From: Oscillospiraceae bacterium
Lineage (GTDB): Bacteria; Bacillota; Clostridia; Oscillospirales; Oscillospiraceae
NCBI GenBank assembly: GCA_902795195.1
Contig: CADBKF010000008.1
Span: forward strand, 17,677-81,676
Direction of reading: 5' to 3'
DNA length: 64,000 bases
Below the pieces are notes generated by a model that saw only the letters and a list, made by a program, of their open reading frames with translations, was not told the DNA's origin and did not search any database. This document shows positions 10,584 to 43,399 of this stretch, one piece after another. Position 1 is the first letter of the stretch, and every line of letters begins with the position of its first letter. The translations under genes and the position numbers were made by a program.

Positions 10584-11393
10584 TTAGGGCGTTTCGTTGG
10601 GGCTGCCGCCCTGTTGGCGGTATTCCTGCGGCGTCATGCCGGTCTCCCTTTTGAACAGGCGGGCAAAATAGGAGTAGTTGTCGTAGCCGACGCTGTCGGC
10701 CACCCGGTTGATCGGATAGTCGGTGCGCACAAGCAGCTCCCTTGCCTGGCGCAGCCGTTCCCCTGTGATATACTCCAGAACAGACAGTCCGGTCGCCTTC
10801 TTGAACAGGCGGGCCAGATACTGCTCGTTCAGATAGACCTGCTCGGCCAGCTTGGACAGATAGATCTGCTCCTGCAGGTGCTTGTGGATATAGTCCTTCA
10901 CCGTGGCGACAGCGCTTTCGCCGGAGCGGCTTCGGTTCTCGTCGGCCAGCCGGCTGAGCACATGTGCAGGGACGCTGCTGTCTTCTTTGTCGGATGGCGG
11001 ATTGCCGTTCTGGTCCGCCCGCTTCCGAAGCCGCTGGGTCACGGTAACCAGAATCCGGTCCAGCTCCTCATAGTCGATGGGTTTCAGGATATAGTCCGCG
11101 CTGCCCAGCTGCATGGCCTTGCGCATATACTCATAGTCCGCGTGACAGGTGATAAACACGCACTCCACCGCGGGATAGTGGGACTTGACCCACGCGAACA
11201 GCTCCAATCCGCTCCCCTGCGGCATCTCGATGTCACAGAGCATCACCTGGATGTCTTTCGAGGAAAACAGCTCCTGTGCCTCGCGCATGGAGTATGCGAT
11301 AGATACCTCTTCTGCACCGTATGCCTTCCAGTCCACCCGCCGCTGCAGCGCCTTGACCGCCACGGCCTCATCGTCCACCAGAATCACATTCAT
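10584..11393 (-). CDS. response regulator, CheY receiver plus AraC-type HTH (YesN-like)
   Basis: MNVILVDDE...MLCDIEMP receiver, then a C-terminal AraC HTH (YSYFARLFKRETGMTPQEYR). ATGA overlap with the upstream kinase stop. Confidence 0.9.
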   Translation of the reverse strand: MNVILVDDEAVAVKALQRRVDWKAYGAEEVSIAYSMREAQELFSSKDIQVMLCDIEMPQGSGLELFAWVKSHYPAVECVFITCHADYEYMRKAMQLGSADYILKPIDYEELDRILVTVTQRLRKRADQNGNPPSDKEDSSVPAHVLSRLADENRSRSGESAVATVKDYIHKHLQEQIYLSKLAEQVYLNEQYLARLFKKATGLSVLEYITGERLRQARELLVRTDYPINRVADSVGYDNYSYFARLFKRETGMTPQEYRQQGGSPNETP

Positions 11394-13144
11394 GCGTTTC
11401 CGACTCCTTTCTTTTCCTGTGCCTGCGGGAGCTTGCCGATCTCGCCGATCTGACTGTGTACCGTGATCATCGGCAGCAGAATCTCAACCGCCGTTCCGCC
11501 GGTCGCCTGCCGGGACAGCGCCACGCTGCCGCTGCCGCCGTAGAGCAGCTCGACCCGGTCGATGGCGTTTTGGATGCCGATGCCCAGGCTCGGGCAGATG
11601 GTACGGGTCTTCCGGAATTCCTCGATGCTCTCCAGCACCTCGTCGGAGATGCCGACTCCGGTGTCGGTCACCCGCAGCAGTAGCTGCCCGTCTGCGTTCT
11701 TTTCGGCGCTCACCCGGATCTCCACAACCGACTCGGGCAGCAGCGCGTATTTGATCGAGTTTTCCGCAAAGCTCTGCAGCAGCAGCGGCGGGATCAGGCA
11801 GTCGGAAAGATCCTCGTCGTATTCCACAACCGCCTCGAAGGTCTTGACAAAGCGGACCTTCTGGATCTCGAAATAGTTGCGCAAATGCTCCATCTCGTGG
11901 CCGAGGGGGACAAAATCCTGATAGGCGTTGACCACATATCTGAAATATCTGGACAGATACAGGATCATCCTCTGGATCAGCGGGTATTCTTCCTGCTCGT
12001 AGCTGTAGAGGATGTTCAGCGTGTTGAGAATAAAGTGCGGCTTGATCTGCTGGGCCAGGAAGCCCATCCGGATCTTCTGCGCCTTGAGCTGCTCCTCATA
12101 CACGCTGATTTTCAGCTCCTCCACCTGATCCATCATGTGGTTGAAGCTGCGGTTGATCCGGTTGAACTCAGTGCCCTGCTCCTTTTCCGGGATCCGGTAG
12201 TCCAGATCGCCGCCCTCCACGATGCCGATGGCCTTGTGAAGCCGTGAGACCGGGCCGACCATCCAGTGCTGGATCGCCAGCACCAGGATCGGCAGGGCGA
12301 TCAGCGCCGCAACGGACAGGATCTGCAGCAGCCGGATCGCAAACGGCAGTGAGCCGCTGATCTGCCGGTCCGGCACAAGCTCCAGCAAATACAGCTCCCC
12401 GGAGAAGGCCCTGGCTGTGGAAATCAGGTAGCTCTGCTTTCCGAGCTTGAGCCGCTCCGTACCCGGCTCGAGCTGCTCCGGCAGCGACGCGGTGGCAAAC
12501 AGAATGCTGCCGTCCCGGTCGGTAAAGGTAAGGATACGCCCTTCCTCCCGCGGGATCTGCTGGGCGAGACCTGCAAGCTCGATCCAGGCGCCGTACCAGA
12601 CATTCCGGTGTTTGCTCATGCTGACCAGTACGGCCCGGTCGTCCAGAGAGATCAGCTGCGTCCGCCGCCTTGGATTTTCAGGGTCGACGTTGATTGCCTC
12701 CAGGATCTTGCTGCGCACCTGGGAGCTTCGGTAGAAATCGCTCTGTGCAAACTGGTCCTTCTCAGGGAAATAGGCATAGAGTCCGCCGATCAGAAACTCG
12801 TCTTCTTTTTTCCTTCTCAGGCTCGACTTCAGATCCACCACGGACTGCAGCTGACGGTAGCGCTCCTCTTCGTTGTTGATCTCTTTGTCCCGCAGACGCA
12901 GATAGTCCGGATCGTCGATGGACAGAAGGGCCAGATAGGTGTCGGCCCGTTTTAAGGCGTCGTCGGCCAGCTTCAGGTAGAGCTCCAGCGTGTGCCGGAT
13001 CTCCATGGTGGTCTGCGCCTCGGCGTCCGCGATGACCCTCTGGCCGAGGACCAGCGTCAGCAGGTTCAGAGGGATCAGCACTGCAAAAATCAGAAACACA
13101 ACGCGGTTGATCCAGGAAGAAAAAAATCGTTTGATGTACTTCAC
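11390..13144 (-). CDS. sensor histidine kinase, YesM-like (TM - HAMP - His_kinase - HATPase)
   Basis: KPHFILNTLNILY block and a C-terminal HATPase (VTDTGVGISDE, GIGIQNAIDRVELLYG). Real start taken as GTG 13144 (VKYIKRFFSSW) with AAGGGGG 5 nt upstream. The remaining 238 upstream codons of the 823-aa tracked ORF run through repeats and antisense to the esterase gene. Confidence 0.85.
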   Translation of the reverse strand: MKYIKRFFSSWINRVVFLIFAVLIPLNLLTLVLGQRVIADAEAQTTMEIRHTLELYLKLADDALKRADTYLALLSIDDPDYLRLRDKEINNEEERYRQLQSVVDLKSSLRRKKEDEFLIGGLYAYFPEKDQFAQSDFYRSSQVRSKILEAINVDPENPRRRTQLISLDDRAVLVSMSKHRNVWYGAWIELAGLAQQIPREEGRILTFTDRDGSILFATASLPEQLEPGTERLKLGKQSYLISTARAFSGELYLLELVPDRQISGSLPFAIRLLQILSVAALIALPILVLAIQHWMVGPVSRLHKAIGIVEGGDLDYRIPEKEQGTEFNRINRSFNHMMDQVEELKISVYEEQLKAQKIRMGFLAQQIKPHFILNTLNILYSYEQEEYPLIQRMILYLSRYFRYVVNAYQDFVPLGHEMEHLRNYFEIQKVRFVKTFEAVVEYDEDLSDCLIPPLLLQSFAENSIKYALLPESVVEIRVSAEKNADGQLLLRVTDTGVGISDEVLESIEEFRKTRTICPSLGIGIQNAIDRVELLYGGSGSVALSRQATGGTAVEILLPMITVHSQIGEIGKLPQAQEKKGVGNA

Positions 13145-13163
13145 ACGCAGACCCCCTTGTTGA

Positions 13164-13200
13164 GTGAATAGAGAATAGAGAATAGAGAATAGGGAATAGG
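13164..13200. repeat. heptanucleotide tandem array, five in-phase units (GTGAATA GAGAATA x3 GGGAATA; minus strand CCTATTC/TCTATTC)
   Basis: Read directly. Exact 7-nt period. Confidence 0.9.
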
Positions 13201-13206
13201 AAAGGT

Positions 13207-13233
13207 ATTTTCCAAATCGGCGATTTGGAAAAT
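13207..13233. other. 27-bp near-perfect palindrome ATTTTCCAAATCG-G-CGATTTGGAAAAT in the kinase leader
   Basis: Read directly: 13-bp arms with a 1-nt centre. A second small hairpin GTCCC-GAA-GGGAC lies at 13245..13257. Confidence 0.85.
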
Positions 13234-13259
13234 GGATTGAAATCGTCCCGAAGGGACAC

Positions 13260-13294
13260 CGACAACTGACAACTGACCACTGGCCACTGACCAC
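13260..13294. repeat. heptanucleotide tandem array, five in-phase units (CGACAAC TGACAAC TGACCAC TGGCCAC TGACCAC; minus strand AGTGGTC type)
   Basis: Read directly. Exact 7-nt period. Confidence 0.9.
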
Positions 13295-13298
13295 TTCC

Positions 13299-13327
13299 AT
13301 TATAAATCGGATCCCCGGATTTGTCAA
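13299..13327 (-). promoter_or_regulatory. consensus sigma-70-type promoter for the yesM/yesN-like operon
   Basis: Minus strand TTGACA (13327..13322), 17-nt spacer, TATAAT (13304..13299). Both hexamers match the consensus exactly. Confidence 0.6.
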
Positions 13328-34148: not shown

Positions 34149-35024
34149 TCACGCGTCCGCCGGGCCTCTGTGGAGCTCCTGGTAGGCCGAGGGAGACAGG
34201 CCGAATTCTTTCTGGAAGGCGCGGTAGAAGCTGGAATAGTCGCCGAAGCCGTAGCGAAGATACAGCTCGGTGATCTTCGCGCCCGAGCGGATCGCCGCGG
34301 CGCAGGCGGCCAGGCGCTTTTTGGTGATGTACTGGTGCACCGAAAGGCCGACGCTCTCCTGGAACAGGTGCGCCACGTAGTATTTGCTGAGGTAAAATTC
34401 CCCGGCGATGCGCTCAAGCGAGAGCGGCTCCTCAAGGTGGGTGTCGATGAAGGCCGTGATGGCCTCGTATTTCGAGACGCTCTCCTGCCGGGCGCCGGTC
34501 TGGGCCTGCTCGTGCACGAGGCGGTTGAGCTGCAAAAGCAGCTGGCAGATGTAGAGGCCAATTTGGGTCTGCTTGCCGTAGCGCTCGGTGTGCAGCTCGT
34601 CGAGCAGGGCAAAGAGCGAGCCGCGCAGCGCGTTGAAGCTTAGAAGGTCAAAGTGGTGGCGGTAGGCGCCGCGCTCTGCCAGCGCAAGCAGCGCGCTGTA
34701 GTCCGCAGATTGGGCGGTCAACGCCCGGCAGTAGTCCCGGCCGAGCCAGAGCACAAAGCGCCGGTAGGGCACGGTCTCATCCTGGATCAGCGCCCGGTGC
34801 TGCACGCCCGGCGGGACCACGATCACGTCGCCCTGCTGCAGAACATAGCGCTCGCGCCCGATCTCCATGCAGACCGCGCCCTCGACAAAGAAATAGAACT
34901 CATAATAATCGTGCGCGTGGCTGCCCACGCTGCGAAAATGCAGATCGCTGTAATAGTAGATCTCATAATCCTTCGAGAGCATGTACTGCCTCGGATTGAA
35001 CACAGAAGACCGTCGTTTCGACAT
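34149..35024 (-). CDS. AraC-family transcriptional regulator (cupin + HTH)
   Basis: N-terminal cupin (HAHDYYEFYFFVEG), C-terminal FGDYSSFYRAFQKEFGLSPSAY. Confidence 0.85.
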   Translation of the reverse strand: MSKRRSSVFNPRQYMLSKDYEIYYYSDLHFRSVGSHAHDYYEFYFFVEGAVCMEIGRERYVLQQGDVIVVPPGVQHRALIQDETVPYRRFVLWLGRDYCRALTAQSADYSALLALAERGAYRHHFDLLSFNALRGSLFALLDELHTERYGKQTQIGLYICQLLLQLNRLVHEQAQTGARQESVSKYEAITAFIDTHLEEPLSLERIAGEFYLSKYYVAHLFQESVGLSVHQYITKKRLAACAAAIRSGAKITELYLRYGFGDYSSFYRAFQKEFGLSPSAYQELHRGPADA

Positions 35025-35040
35025 ACGCCCCTCCTTATAA

Positions 35041-35075
35041 AACTAACCACTAACCACTAACAACTACCCACTATT
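35041..35075. repeat. heptanucleotide tandem array, five in-phase units (AACTAAC CACTAAC CACTAAC AACTACC CACTATT; minus strand AGTGGTT type)
   Basis: Read directly. Fills the whole space between the -10 box and the RBS of the AraC gene. Confidence 0.9.
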
Positions 35076-35100
35076 ATAACAACTTTTGCAAACTATGCAA
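35073..35100 (-). promoter_or_regulatory. near-consensus promoter of the AraC gene 34149..35024
   Basis: Minus strand TTGCAT (35100..35095), 16 nt, TATAAT (35078..35073). Confidence 0.55.
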
Positions 35101-35164
35101 CAATCAAAGCAATTCTTTTTCTGACTTTTTTACGGTATGCTCAAAGAAAAAACGGAGGGTTCCT

Positions 35165-36646
35165 ATGAAGGCGTTTATGGATCGAGATTTTTTGCTGCAA
35201 AGCAGCACGGCGCAGCGGCTGTACCACGAGGCCGCAGCCGGCTGCCCCATCATTGACTACCACTGCCACCTGAGCGCGCAGGAGATTTATGAGGACCGGC
35301 GCTTTGAGAACATCACGCAGGTCTGGCTGGGCGGCGACCACTACAAGTGGCGGCTCATGCGGAGCTTCGGCGTCGATGAGCGCAGGATCACCGGCGATAG
35401 CTCCGACCGCGAGAAGTTCCAGGCCTGGGCCGAGACCCTGGCGCTGGCGATCGGCAACCCCCTGTATCACTGGAGCCACCTGGAGCTGCGCAACTATTTC
35501 GGCTTTGAGGGCACGCTGAACGGCGAGACCGCCGAGGCCGTCTGGCAGCTGTGCAACGTGAAGCTGGCCCGGCCCGAGTTCTCCGCCCGGAGCCTGATTC
35601 AGCGCTCGAACGTCGAGGTCATCTGCACGACCGACGACCCGGCGGATTCGCTGGAATGGCACGAGAAGCTCGCCCGAGTCTGTCATTCTGAGCAAAGCGA
35701 AGAATCTCATGCTGAGTCTGGGACAGATTCTTCGGCGCAAGCGCCTCAGAATGACAATGCGGAAGGCTTTTCCGTCAAGGTGCGGCCGAGCTTCCGCCCG
35801 GACAAGGCGATCTGCCTTGAAAAGGCGGACTATGCCGCCTATCTGGAAACGCTCGGCGCTGCAGCCGGCTGCAAGATCGACTCCTTCGCCTCTCTCTGCA
35901 AGGCCCTGGCACAGCGGGCGGACTTCTTTGACCGCCTGGGCTGCCGCGTGTCGGACCACGGCCTGGCGGCGGTGCCCTACGCTGAGGCAGACGCCGACAC
36001 CGTGGAGGCCATCTTCCAAAAGCGCCTGGCAGGCGAGGCCCTGTCCGTACTCGAGCTCGCGCAGTTCAAAACCGCGCTGCTCGTGTTCCTCGGCCGCATC
36101 TACGCCGAGAAAGGCTGGGTCATGCAGCTGCACTTCGGCGTCATCCGCGACAATTCCAAGCGCGTCTTCCGCGCCCTGGGCCCGGACGCCGGCATCGACT
36201 CCATCGGCGACGCGGCCTCGATCCAGGATCTGGCCTGCTTCCTCAACGCGCTCGACGAAACCGATCAGCTGCCCCGGACCATCCTCTACTCCCTGAACCC
36301 CAACGACAACGCGGCGCTGGGCACGGTCATGGGCTGCTTCCAGCAGGGCGGCATCCCCGGCAAGCTGCAGCTCGGCAGCGCCTGGTGGTTCAACGACCAC
36401 CGGCCCGGCATGGAGGCCCAGCTCACCGCGCTGGCAAGCCTCGGCCACCTGGCGACCTTCGTCGGCATGCTGACCGACTCCCGCTCCTTCCTCAGCTACG
36501 CCCGGCACGAATATTTCCGCCGCATCCTCTGCAACCTGCTCGGCACCTGGGTGGAAAACGGCGAATATCCCGCCGACATGGCCGCCCTGACCACGATCGT
36601 GCGCGGCATCTGCCACGACAACGCCGCCCGCTATTTCGCATTCTGA
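35165..36646 (+). CDS. uxaC: glucuronate isomerase carrying an in-frame ~28-codon palindromic-element insertion
   Basis: DYHCHL, GDHYKWR, GNPLYHWSHLELR, MLTDSRSFLSYARHEYFRRILC are all UxaC hallmarks. 493 aa against the ~470 aa I remember for the family. Confidence 0.9.
   Translation: MKAFMDRDFLLQSSTAQRLYHEAAAGCPIIDYHCHLSAQEIYEDRRFENITQVWLGGDHYKWRLMRSFGVDERRITGDSSDREKFQAWAETLALAIGNPLYHWSHLELRNYFGFEGTLNGETAEAVWQLCNVKLARPEFSARSLIQRSNVEVICTTDDPADSLEWHEKLARVCHSEQSEESHAESGTDSSAQAPQNDNAEGFSVKVRPSFRPDKAICLEKADYAAYLETLGAAAGCKIDSFASLCKALAQRADFFDRLGCRVSDHGLAAVPYAEADADTVEAIFQKRLAGEALSVLELAQFKTALLVFLGRIYAEKGWVMQLHFGVIRDNSKRVFRALGPDAGIDSIGDAASIQDLACFLNALDETDQLPRTILYSLNPNDNAALGTVMGCFQQGGIPGKLQLGSAWWFNDHRPGMEAQLTALASLGHLATFVGMLTDSRSFLSYARHEYFRRILCNLLGTWVENGEYPADMAALTTIVRGICHDNAARYFAF
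35682..35755. repeat. nested-palindrome element GTCATTCTGAG...GAAGAATCT / AGATTCTTC...CTCAGAATGAC inside uxaC
   Basis: An 11-bp outer arm pair and a 9-bp inner arm pair, read directly. Translates as CHSEQSEESHAESGTDSSAQAPQND. Confidence 0.85.
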
Positions 36647-41646: not shown

Positions 41647-42966
41647 ATGAAACACAAACTCGATCTTCGACAATGGAATATTCCCTACATCGGCCAGCGG
41701 ATCATGAAGACGACCGTGGCGGTGTTTTTGTGTCTGCTGGCCTATCTGCTGCTGGGCTACCGCGGCAGCACGATCCCCACCGAGGCTGCCATCACCGCGA
41801 TCATCTGCATGCAGCCCTTCGTCAGCCGCACCAAGCAGTATGCCATCACCCGCACGATCGGCACGCTGATCGGCTCGTTCTGGGGGCTTCTGACGCTGGT
41901 GCTGCTCTATTCGGTGCCGGCCATCGGCCAGTGGCTGCCGCTGCCGCATCTGTGCATGGCCATCGGTGTGATGCTCTCGCTCTACAGCGCGAATCTGCTG
42001 CACCGGACCGAGGCTGCCAGCCAGGCCGCCATCGTCTTTTTGTGCATCGTCATCGCCTTTCCGGAGGTGGACGCGCCGCTGCAGCGGGCCGGCCTGCGCA
42101 TCGCGGACGTCTTTCTCGGCACGCTGATCGCGATCGCGGTCAACACCTTCCGCCTGCCGCGCAGAAAGCAGCCGGACACGGTTTACTTTGTGCGCACGCG
42201 GGACCTTGTGCCCGACCGCTTCTCGCAGATTACGCCCACGGTGCTCTTCCGGCTCAACCGGTTGTATGAGGACGGGGCAAAGATCTGCCTGGTCAGCGAG
42301 CACGCGCCCGCCTTCTTCACCCAGCAGATGAACGCGGTCAAGATGAACGTGCCGCTGATCGTCATGGACGGCGCCGCGATTTTTGACGAAAACAAGAACT
42401 GCTTTTTGAAGGAGAACACCATCGCCAAGGCCGACTCCGCCCGGGTGCGCAACCAGCTCGACACCCTGGGGCTGAGCTACTTTATCTACACCATCCACCG
42501 TGACAAGACCTGCATTTTCCACCGCGGACGCTACCGCCCGGAGGAAAATCTGCTCATCGACCGCATGAAGCGCTCGCCCTACCGCAACTATCTCGAGGGC
42601 GAGATCTACGAGGCGGCGGAGATCGTCTATTTCAAGATCATCGCGCAGACCGCCGAGGTGCAGGAGCTTGAGGAGGACGTGCGCAGCGTGCTGCCGACGC
42701 AGAAATACCGCATCGTGACCAAACCCCAGGCCGGCGCCGAGGGGCTGAGCGGCATCTATATCTACGCCGAAGGCTCGAACCCCGAGACGGCAAAGGCCGA
42801 GCTCATGAAGCTGCTGCGCCAGCAGGACCCCCAGCTCAAGCCGCTGAACATGACGCTCAAAACCGGCTACCGCACCGAGCACGACGCCATCCGCCTGCTG
42901 CACAGCATCGAAAGCCACTTTGAGCCGGTCATCTTCCGTAAACGCAGGAGTGCAGCGAGGAGTTAG
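41647..42966 (+). CDS. FUSC/ArAE-like membrane domain fused to a Cof/HAD-like domain lacking the DxD nucleophile motif
   Basis: Start trimmed to ATG 41647. N-terminal ~170 aa with 4-5 TM (RIMKTTVAVFLCLLAYLL...). The C-terminal ~270 aa is HAD-IIB-like, but the position of motif I reads FVRTRDLV. Confidence 0.6.
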   Translation: MKHKLDLRQWNIPYIGQRIMKTTVAVFLCLLAYLLLGYRGSTIPTEAAITAIICMQPFVSRTKQYAITRTIGTLIGSFWGLLTLVLLYSVPAIGQWLPLPHLCMAIGVMLSLYSANLLHRTEAASQAAIVFLCIVIAFPEVDAPLQRAGLRIADVFLGTLIAIAVNTFRLPRRKQPDTVYFVRTRDLVPDRFSQITPTVLFRLNRLYEDGAKICLVSEHAPAFFTQQMNAVKMNVPLIVMDGAAIFDENKNCFLKENTIAKADSARVRNQLDTLGLSYFIYTIHRDKTCIFHRGRYRPEENLLIDRMKRSPYRNYLEGEIYEAAEIVYFKIIAQTAEVQELEEDVRSVLPTQKYRIVTKPQAGAEGLSGIYIYAEGSNPETAKAELMKLLRQQDPQLKPLNMTLKTGYRTEHDAIRLLHSIESHFEPVIFRKRRSAARS

Positions 42967-43065
42967 GGGTCAGGGGTCAGGGGCCAGGAGTCAGTGGACA
43001 GTTGAAAGTGGAAAGTGGAAAGATGTTCCATTCCCTCCTCGTTCCTCACTGACCACTAACCACTC
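42963..43065. repeat. array of ~15 in-phase heptanucleotides whose motif drifts (TCAGGGG -> TCAGTGG -> AAAGTGG -> TTCCATT -> CACTGAC/CACTAAC)
   Basis: Read directly. The phase is kept across the whole 103 nt. The left and right thirds are roughly reverse-complementary. Confidence 0.85.
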
Positions 43066-43130
43066 AAAAAAAAGGGCAAAGCACCAACGCGCCTGCCGGA
43101 GGCAGCTGCGTTGATGCTTTGCCCTTTTTA
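43066..43130. terminator. long bidirectional terminator hairpin
   Basis: A8-GGGCAAAGCA...TGCTTTGCCC-T5, with an inner helix CAACGC-CTGCC-GGA-GGCAG-TGCGTTG. Confidence 0.75.
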
Positions 43131-43189
43131 TATTCGGAACGCCGCCCTGAAAATCGTCGTCCGGAGAAATGTCGTCCGGAAAAACGCCG

Positions 43190-43399
43190 TCAGTGGACGG
43201 GCTGGGGCATGTGCTCGTGGAGTCTTTGGAGGCCGATTTCGTACTGCGCCTGCGAGATCGCGTTCCGGACCCGGAGGGTCTCGAGCATCTCCAGTTCACG
43301 CTGATACATCGCGCGCAGCTTCTGCTGGCGGGTCATCCGCTCCCACTCGCGCTGCTGCGCGCTGGGCTGACGCAAATCGGTTGCAACGTCGATTGCCAT
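43190..43399 (-). CDS. small (69 aa) helical protein with SHOCT-like C-terminal motif; function unknown
   Basis: ATG 43399 with GAGGGGG 7 nt upstream. MAIDVATDLRQPSAQQREWERMTRQQKLRAMYQRELEMLETLRVRNAISQAQYEIGLQRL... Confidence 0.55.
   Translation of the reverse strand: MAIDVATDLRQPSAQQREWERMTRQQKLRAMYQRELEMLETLRVRNAISQAQYEIGLQRLHEHMPQPVH

Follow-up and report, generated by a model that had tools for sequence, protein, structure and literature searches.

A heptanucleotide array in the leader of an AraC-family gene of a rumen Oscillospiraceae bacterium: probably a solo member of a genome-wide repeat family behind an old promoter

Introduction

How does an array of five tandem heptanucleotides come to lie between the promoter and the ribosome-binding site of a regulator gene, and does it act there? 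The question is raised by the leader of an AraC-family gene in a stretch of 64,000 nucleotides from an Oscillospiraceae bacterium (assembly GCA_902795195.1, contig CADBKF010000008.1, positions 17,677 to 81,676), hereafter the window. An initial annotation of the window regarded promoter and heptads as a single recurring cassette, with a first copy at 13260..13327, placed in front of regulator genes. The analysis described here supports another view. With a probability of about two in three, the array is a solo arm or array of a heptad family resembling the short tandemly repeated repetitive (STRR) sequences, inserted behind an old promoter and carried passively in the 5' untranslated region (UTR). 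The source genome is a rumen metagenome-assembled genome (MAG) of 2.39 Mb in 94 contigs, with 60.9% GC and 93% completeness.

Anatomy of the locus

The array is placed within a 140-nt divergent intergenic region. From 35105 to 35022 the minus strand reads GATTGTTGCATAGTTTGCAAAAGTTGTTATAAT AGTGGGT AGTTGTT AGTGGTT AGTGGTT AGTTTTA TAA GGAGGGG CGT ATG, and the features of the locus are the following.

35165..36646, plus strand: uxaC, glucuronate isomerase gene, the divergent neighbour
35073..35105, minus strand: conserved promoter and probable operator block GATTGTTGCATAGTTTGCAAAAGTTGTTATAAT, recognised by its conservation in orthologs
35100..35095, minus strand: -35-like TTGCAT, read from the sequence
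35081..35073, minus strand: extended -10 TGTTATAAT, formed by TGT (35081..35079) ahead of TATAAT
35078..35073, minus strand: TATAAT -10 box, after a 16-nt spacer from TTGCAT
35038..35072, minus strand: solo G-rich array of five heptads, with five AGK cores at 7-nt spacing, equal to five TAG-N4 units
35072..35066, minus strand: heptad 1, AGTGGGT
35065..35059, minus strand: heptad 2, AGTTGTT
35058..35052, minus strand: heptad 3, AGTGGTT
35051..35045, minus strand: heptad 4, AGTGGTT
35044..35038, minus strand: heptad 5, AGTTTTA
35034..35028, minus strand: Shine-Dalgarno (SD) sequence GGAGGGG, after TAA and before CGT and the ATG
35024..35022, minus strand: ATG start codon of the AraC-family gene
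34149..35024, minus strand: AraC-family regulator gene with cupin/AraC_binding and HTH_18 domains

The order of TTGCAT, 16-nt spacer, TATAAT, five in-phase heptads, SD sequence and ATG is thus the one initially described. Tandem Repeats Finder (TRF) reports the array at 35042-35073 with period 7, 4.6 copies, 88% matches and a score of 50. The pattern TAG-N4 repeated four times is matched four times in the window (two matches here and two at 13169-13199), against 0.00 matches in 100 dinucleotide-preserving shuffles. Together with the 456 period-7 arrays of the genome described below, this confirms that the heptads recur beyond chance, as had been proposed. A scan for strict consensus promoters lists none at this site because TTGCAT matches TTGACA at only 3/6 positions. 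The putative promoter is called from the extended -10 and from the conservation of the whole block in orthologous loci.

The promoter block in orthologous loci

Orthologous regulator genes were taken from species genomes and metagenomes, and their upstream regions were read. The block TTGTTGCA(A/T)AnATTGCAAAnnTTG(C/T)TATAAT is found ahead of the gene in 15 or more MAGs with the labels Oscillospiraceae, Lachnospiraceae, Erysipelotrichaceae, Clostridiales or Bacillota, and none of these orthologous loci with the promoter block TTGTTGCAnnnATTGCAAAnnTTGnTATAAT contains heptads. In the closest orthologs (72-73% protein identity) the sequence reads ...TTGCTATAATAGAG(A/G)GGGTGATGCATATG, also given as TTGCATATATTGCAAATCTTGCTATAATAGAG(A/G)GGGTGATGCATATG, with an SD-like G-run almost directly after the -10 box. 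About 15 further orthologs beyond these keep the promoter block and lack heptads. A promoter block kept in loci without heptads indicates an old promoter and a lineage-specific addition. The block upstream of the AraC-type gene is thus ancestral, and this lineage has gained the ~38 nt of heptads that separate TATAAT-AG from GGAGGGG. The conservation anticipated for the cassette in orthologous loci is therefore that of the promoter block, the heptads being found in none of the loci examined. The sequence GATTGCTTT was also seen to precede the conserved block TTGTTGCAnnnATTGCAAAnnTTGnTATAAT (window 35073-35110, minus strand; loci L001-L018 and L083-L092; several families of Clostridia).

The orthologous AraC-type genes are divergent to uxuA-like or uxaC genes, as judged from neighbour N-termini read by eye. 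The gene at 34149..35024 probably encodes a hexuronate regulator, and in the conserved block an operator for this same regulator is probably joined to an extended -10 promoter. The promoter would then belong to the regulator gene and not to the repeat, with the heptads as a species-specific add-on. For the annotation of the hexuronate regulon, the TTGTTGCA...TATAAT block is to be read as the control region and the heptads as an insertion.

The species-specific character of the array is also observed in the unit counts. This genome contains 104 occurrences of AGTGGNN in three copies, and 27 congeners compared with it have 0-3 each. The generic pattern AGKNNNN in five copies has tens to hundreds of matches in most congeners, where it is built from other units, and is rare outside the genus. 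The set of units in use therefore changes from one species to another. Two other assemblies that encode an identical protein carry an identical array, both being from the same study, and the metagenome scan for orthologs gave none closer than 73% protein identity.

The heptad family in the genome

The genome has 456 TRF arrays of period 7 with at least 3.5 copies, compared with 65 and 51 for periods 6 and 8, respectively. The density, ~190 heptad arrays per Mb, is very high. For the genome statistics, genes were called crudely, from open reading frame (ORF) length, GC skew at third codon positions and start choice based on ribosome-binding sites, so that distances to stop codons are reliable and those to start codons approximate. 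Only 17 of the 456 arrays fall inside genes called in this manner, a strong intergenic bias. The most frequent units on the G-rich strand are AGTGGAA (69), AGGCAAT (62), AGGGATC (54) and GAGGAGT (36), followed by AGGGGTC (31), AGTGGAC (26), AGGGAAT (20) and AGTGGTT (14).

The units differ and their core is shared. AG is present in the consensus unit of 95% of the indel-free arrays, and the AG-aligned unit is AGKGRWH, with a within-array mismatch of 1.7, 1.3, 4.3, 12.9, 11.9, 7.5 and 17.3% at positions 1 to 7. The low mismatch at positions 1-3 identifies AG(K) every 7 nt as the protected feature. Runs of at least four AGK cores number about 370 at period 7 and at most ~16 at periods 5, 6, 8 and 9. 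In-phase runs of three, four, five, six and seven cores number 153, 90, 148, 35 and 23, respectively. Just over half of the arrays (236/456) have 4.0-4.9 copies, and the mode corresponds to five cores (~31 nt), which is exactly the number in the array at 35038-35072.

The arrays follow a strict orientation rule. Of the arrays that follow a stop codon by no more than 30 nt, 110 have a sense and 10 an antisense G-rich strand, whereas the arrays up to 30 nt ahead of a start codon divide into 10 sense and 27 antisense. About 95 arrays start within 10 nt of a stop codon or overlap it. Inverted neighbouring arrays are arranged G-then-C in 34 cases and C-then-G in one. No bias is seen from the direction of the flanking genes alone; it appears only with the distance to the nearest stop or start. 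With most arrays lying just after stop codons, the proposed tie between heptads and regulator genes does not hold. Relative to the ATG of the AraC-type gene, the array at 35038-35072 is sense and 13 nt upstream (17 nt from the last AGK core), which is the rare class. Relative to uxaC its G-rich strand is antisense and 91 nt upstream, the common class of orientation. No inverted partner lies within 150 nt of this array, as for 371 of the 456 arrays in all. It is an ordinary member of the genome-wide family, if a slightly atypical one.

A typical member of the after-stop, G-sense class is also found in the window:

42958..43070, plus strand: composite heptad array that begins at the stop codon of a FUSC/HAD gene, with AGGGGTC in four copies, then AGTGGAA-type units, then C-rich inverted units, then a terminator hairpin

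Several other repeats were noticed near heptad arrays. A 15-nt tandem repeat (AACGCCGTCCGGAAA, 3.6 copies) occupies 43138-43191, just past the terminator that follows the 42958-43070 cluster. The dispersed repeat ATGTCATTCTGAG(C/G)...GAAGAATCT often comes after heptad arrays (e.g., C2:44240, C2:69740 and C17:11350, given as contig and position). Over 500 copies of elements like repetitive extragenic palindromic (REP) sequences, each with a hairpin and a GTAG head, are spread over the genome (e.g., C10:52260-52380, C28:463-620 and C24:4511-4640), in families that include GTAGTGGCCGAT (131 copies), GTAGGGACAAGC (91), GTAGGGGACGGC (68), GTAGGGGCGAGC (67) and GTAGGGACGAGC (67). A REP-like GTAG element lies within 20 nt after 24% of the heptad arrays. 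Weak ORFs for Y1 transposases like the REP-associated tyrosine transposases (RAYT) were seen at C17:27835, C17:23108 and C6:28305.

The direct repeat TTATAA stands on both sides of the array (35035-35040 and 35074-35079, minus strand), and its second copy forms TATAAG 9 nt before the ATG, which may be an alternative -10 box. A target-site duplication was considered and rejected at the level of the genome. Among 376 arrays, the flanks share a longest common substring of at least 5 in 53 cases versus 45±6 in permuted data, and of at least 6 in 16 versus 14±3. The TTATAA pair is read as a coincidence because this genome-wide signal is missing.

PF05635 cassettes and ORF-less elements

The genome contains eight genes of PF05635, the Avd-like four-helix-bundle family:

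genome G000, contig and position: C3:13283, C32:8342, C39:1963, C17:10470, C30:35282, C41:10264, C29:199 and C1:35928

Six to seven of the eight lie between host genes with a G-rich array upstream and a complementary C-rich array downstream. The upstream arm comes directly after the stop codon of the preceding gene, and its last unit, AGGAG, serves as the SD sequence; the downstream C-rich arm is found just before the SD sequence of the next gene. Each paralog has its own unit type, such as the AGGGGTC arms at C17:10470 and the AGGCAAT arms at C32:8342. In the C39 cassette the upstream module of arm plus SD was seen to be triplicated.

The same arrangement is found in relatives. Inverted heptad arms flank 17 of the 20 PF05635 genes sampled in congeners and two other families, with units such as TAGTCAC, AGGCACC, TAGTTGC/TAGTTGT (genome G055) and AGTTGAA (G003). 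An orthologous cassette sits behind the same host gene in three species (loci L179 in G009, L184 in G041 and L182 in G011). Its arms are AGGCAAT in two of them and AGGCAGT in the third, with a matching change in the C-rich arm, which points to co-variation of the arms or gene conversion between them. The number of PF05635 copies correlates with heptad counts (Spearman rho of 0.63 over 61 genomes and 0.72 within the genus, uncorrected for phylogeny). PF05635 proteins are related to the structures 2gsc (Xanthomonas campestris, E = 3.6e-21) and 2rld of the PDB, with five chains each. They resemble Avd (PMC10053308), a positively charged pentameric barrel that acts as accessory protein of diversity-generating retroelements (DGR) (PMC6182149). 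The assembly has no RVT_1 gene for a reverse transcriptase, and retro-mobility through a DGR-like reverse transcriptase was rejected on this ground.

A second type of element has heptad arms and no ORF. A G-rich arm leads into a conserved double-hairpin core (GGTGTCCCTTCGGGACG... and TTTTCCAAATCGCCGATTTGGAAAA), and a C-rich arm closes the element. The core is present at 6-8 sites of the genome with AGTGGTT/AGTGGTC-type arms, and one of its hairpins matches, at 91% identity over 34 nt, a hairpin that adjoins a PF05635 gene of a congener. The sites are:

13160..13300, minus strand: ORF-less heptad-armed element in the leader of the YesM-type histidine kinase gene 11390-13144 (the supposed first cassette)
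other sites: C8:88450-88510, C14:52465-52586, C39:11985, C54:2394, C28:9306 and C23:4243

In the element at 13160..13300, the G-rich arm (13257-13295) reads AGTGGTC AGTGGCC AGTGGTC AGTTGTC AGTTGTC and is followed by a double-hairpin core of 58-63 nt and by a C/U-rich arm made of CTATTCC and three copies of CTATTCT. Its two arms come from separate unit families and lack complementarity. Both here and at C8:88450-88510 the core is flanked by AGTGGTT/AGTGGTC/AGTTGTC arms.

Heptad arrays in this genus are thus the inverted terminal arms of PF05635 cassettes and of their ORF-less hairpin derivatives. The cassette order of stop codon, G-rich arm, cargo, C-rich arm, SD sequence and start codon explains the orientation rule of the arrays. 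At 35038-35072 the array has five AG(K)-core heptads of a unit type that is used as arms elsewhere. No C-rich partner is located within 150 nt, the flanks being the conserved promoter block and the SD sequence, and neither cargo, PF05635 ORF or double-hairpin core, is present at the locus.

A solo array, probably carried passively in the leader

The preferred explanation is that one G-rich array of ~38 nt, present in this species only, came to lie between an old extended -10 and the SD sequence, either by insertion or by growth from an ancestral TATAAT-AG-AGGGG sequence. A leader of ~10-20 nt would thereby have become an unstructured, G/U-rich 5' UTR of ~45-50 nt. Transcription would start ~7 nt after TATAAT, placing four to five heptads in the messenger RNA. 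The initial description of a leader made of heptads is retained to this extent: the leader would be mostly heptads, provided that the promoter is used. The solo arm, or array grown in place, would be tolerated rather than used, with at most a modest effect on translation or mRNA stability. Passive carriage is favoured because the array brought no promoter, has no terminator or significant RNA structure and lacks a recognisable partner arm. The operator block is on the uxaC side of the array, therefore the control of uxaC should be unaffected.

Structured or otherwise functional leaders were considered. The leader RNA folds no better than shuffled sequences (z = 0.39) and no intrinsic terminator exists between the array and the ATG, which led to the rejection of an attenuator or structured leader. 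A known cis-regulatory RNA was likewise rejected, since no Rfam match reaches the gathering score anywhere in the window and 34900-35250 has none with E <= 1. The G-tracts of the array (GGG, G, GG and GG) include three of at least two G's, fewer than the four of a G-quadruplex.

Several observations weigh against the passive solo array. A relic-arm origin is conjectural at a locus that has no partner arm, and growth in place by slippage from the ancestral TAATAGAGGGG seed would look alike. No PF05635 gene with AGTGG-type arms occurs in the 93%-complete assembly, although it could be missing from it. The correlation does not extend to the genomes G024 and G050, which carry arrays (80+43 and 16+92 pattern hits, respectively) and no PF05635 gene. 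Both the constraint on the AG(K) core and the sharp peak at five cores point to selection or a defined template, a poor fit to pure passivity. Finally, the layout of G-rich array, SD sequence and ATG is also found before PF05635 ORFs and about three other host genes, therefore a role in translation is possible.

Alternative explanations

The best placed of the alternatives, though an unlikely one, is an ordinary simple-sequence repeat (SSR) that arose by replication slippage from a TATAAT-AG (TAATAG) seed with no link to an element, possibly as a contingency tract that sets the leader length. Polymerase slippage was proposed by Mrazek 2007 for the over-representation of heptanucleotides, as outlined in PMC4679880 and PMC4692102. 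Several promoters of the genome read TATAAT-AG directly followed by an array, AATAG is part of common units, and the array flanks have no signal of target-site duplication. On the other hand, slippage alone predicts monotonic lengths and a uniform decay of the units, and not a five-core mode or a protected AG(K) core. The imperfect units, with three sequences among five, would also be a poor slippage substrate. As to a contingency tract, the array shows 88% matches, and its identity in the two assemblies from one study carries little weight.

Also improbable is a binding platform in which an oligomeric protein reads the five AG(K) cores at 7-nt spacing in RNA or single-stranded DNA. One of the pentameric Avd-like PF05635 proteins encoded between heptad arms is the candidate, and translation or stability of the regulator mRNA would be tied to it. 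A core whose variability is 5-10 times lower than that of the other unit positions and a sharp mode at exactly five cores would suit such a platform, as would the five chains of 2gsc and 2rld and the resemblance of PF05635 to the charged pentameric barrel of Avd (PMC6182149, PMC10053308). The distinct unit type of each paralog, the arms that co-vary between orthologous cassettes and the G-array, SD and ATG layout at the PF05635 ORFs themselves point the same way. However, a mobile element would just as well have terminal repeats of fixed length, and the match of paralog and unit is also predicted by common descent of whole cassettes. Furthermore, AGTGG-type arms are found on no paralog in the assembly, and the arrays occur in both orientations relative to transcription. 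A broader form of the idea is likewise improbable: the five AG(K) sites would fit the five subunits of PF05635 pentamers in a self-propagating protein/nucleic-acid system, a new mobile or regulatory element. If true, solo leader arrays would put host genes under the control of cassette proteins, and the heptamer repeats found in cyanobacteria and in Xanthomonas would be of this nature too. Xanthomonas campestris, one of the heptamer-rich species studied by Rehm et al., is also the source of 2gsc, the closest structure solved.

Very little favours the mobile promoter-plus-heptad-leader module of the initial annotation, which would share descent with 13260..13327 and be inserted before regulator genes. 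Two loci of the window do have a -10 box directly before AGTGG-type heptads, ahead of regulatory genes, and about six arrays genome-wide adjoin a promoter-like site. Nevertheless, the promoter is ancestral on the comparison above and conserved in orthologs without heptads. An alignment of the two loci from -35 to last heptad, as had been suggested, finds agreement in the heptads only, with unrelated spacers and -10 boxes out of register. Promoter-like sites abut 6 of 912 array ends, against 16.3±4.1 at random intergenic positions, so they are not enriched there. The other locus, at 13257-13295, is an arm of the ORF-less hairpin element with its 6-8 copies. The two loci share a repeat family, not a promoter module.

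HutP recognises UAG triplets with 4-nt spacers, as in the hut system of Bacillus subtilis. A HutP-type antiterminator site is hardly credible here in spite of the five UAG-N4 units at exact 7-nt spacing on the leader sense strand, given that PF09021 is absent from this genome and the 27 congeners (the same search finds it in five other genera of the order and in B. subtilis), that no terminator stands between the array and the start codon, and that in most arrays of the family the triplet is CAG or AAG, not UAG.

Comparison with known systems

Heptamer repeats of this kind are already known, as the STRR sequences, the long heptanucleotide SSRs (LSSR), GGGNATC and TAACTGA (PMC4692102, PMC4679880). 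The STRR heptamers of Calothrix and Nostoc were described by Mazel 1990, as cited in PMC4692102, the long heptanucleotide SSRs by Mrazek et al. 2007, according to the summary in PMC4679880, and GGGAATC of Xanthomonas and GGGGAYT of Nostoc by Rehm 2015 (PMC4692102). The arrays described here share with these intergenic repeats the period of 7, the hundreds of copies, the strong intergenic bias and the preference for about four full units. In both, inverted pairs form hairpins and units differ between related species. The rule that the G-rich strand is sense after stop codons and antisense before ORFs is also common to the Xanthomonas and Nostoc repeats (PMC4692102), and the units AGGGATC and AGGGAAT are one step from GGGAATC. 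The differences reside in the host, a rumen Oscillospiraceae (Bacillota) with 61% GC and a small 2.4 Mb genome, and in the many coexisting unit types that share only the AG(K) core. The AGTGGTT/AGTTGTT array at 35038-35072 has too few G-tracts for the canonical G-quadruplex of the GGGNATC/GGGGAYT class, and its orientation to the AraC-type start is the rare one.

The TAACTGA direct repeats of marine Beggiatoaceae, cyanobacteria and Bacteroidetes (MacGregor 2015, PMC4679880) are heptamer arrays of 2-6 copies found mostly a few nt upstream of start codons. Their complement, TCAGTTA, contains the AGT core (AGTTATC compared with AGTTGTT here). They have one nearly invariant unit and a pyrimidine-type sense strand, in contrast to the many units and the G-rich sense strand of the present array.

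Intervening sequences (IVS) of 23S rRNA with an S23p/PF05635 ORF are known, for example, in Coxiella (PMC4990558). The heptad arms flank the same protein family, and inverted arms could form a long stem around the ORF. The cassettes lie between protein-coding genes and not in rRNA and, in a genome without reverse transcriptase, they are not DGRs either. The array at 35038-35072 has neither ORF nor partner arm, unlike these IVS and Avd systems. HutP- and TRAP-type sites, with repeated (U/G)AG triplets bound by a ring-shaped protein, have regular NAG cores in a 5' leader in common with the array, whose 7-nt spacing is that of the HutP site. They differ in that the genus has no HutP gene, the leader has no terminator, and the arrays are genome-wide and mostly 3' of genes. 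REP sequences and bacterial interspersed mosaic elements (BIME), associated with RAYT transposases, are likewise abundant and intergenic, and many of them follow stop codons. A REP consists of one palindrome headed by a conserved GTAG and not of tandem heptads, and the array at 35038-35072 has no adjacent hairpin.

The lineage, the density, the multi-unit family sharing only the AG(K) core and the confirmation of a link to PF05635 cassettes are new, this link not being found in the searchable literature. A gut Firmicute lineage hereby joins the bacteria that accumulate heptanucleotide repeats, and it supplies figures against which every explanation has to be measured: a protected AG(K) core, a five-core mode and a strict stop/start orientation rule. 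If the link to PF05635 is causal, the STRR puzzle, more than thirty years old, becomes testable with purified protein and short oligonucleotides.

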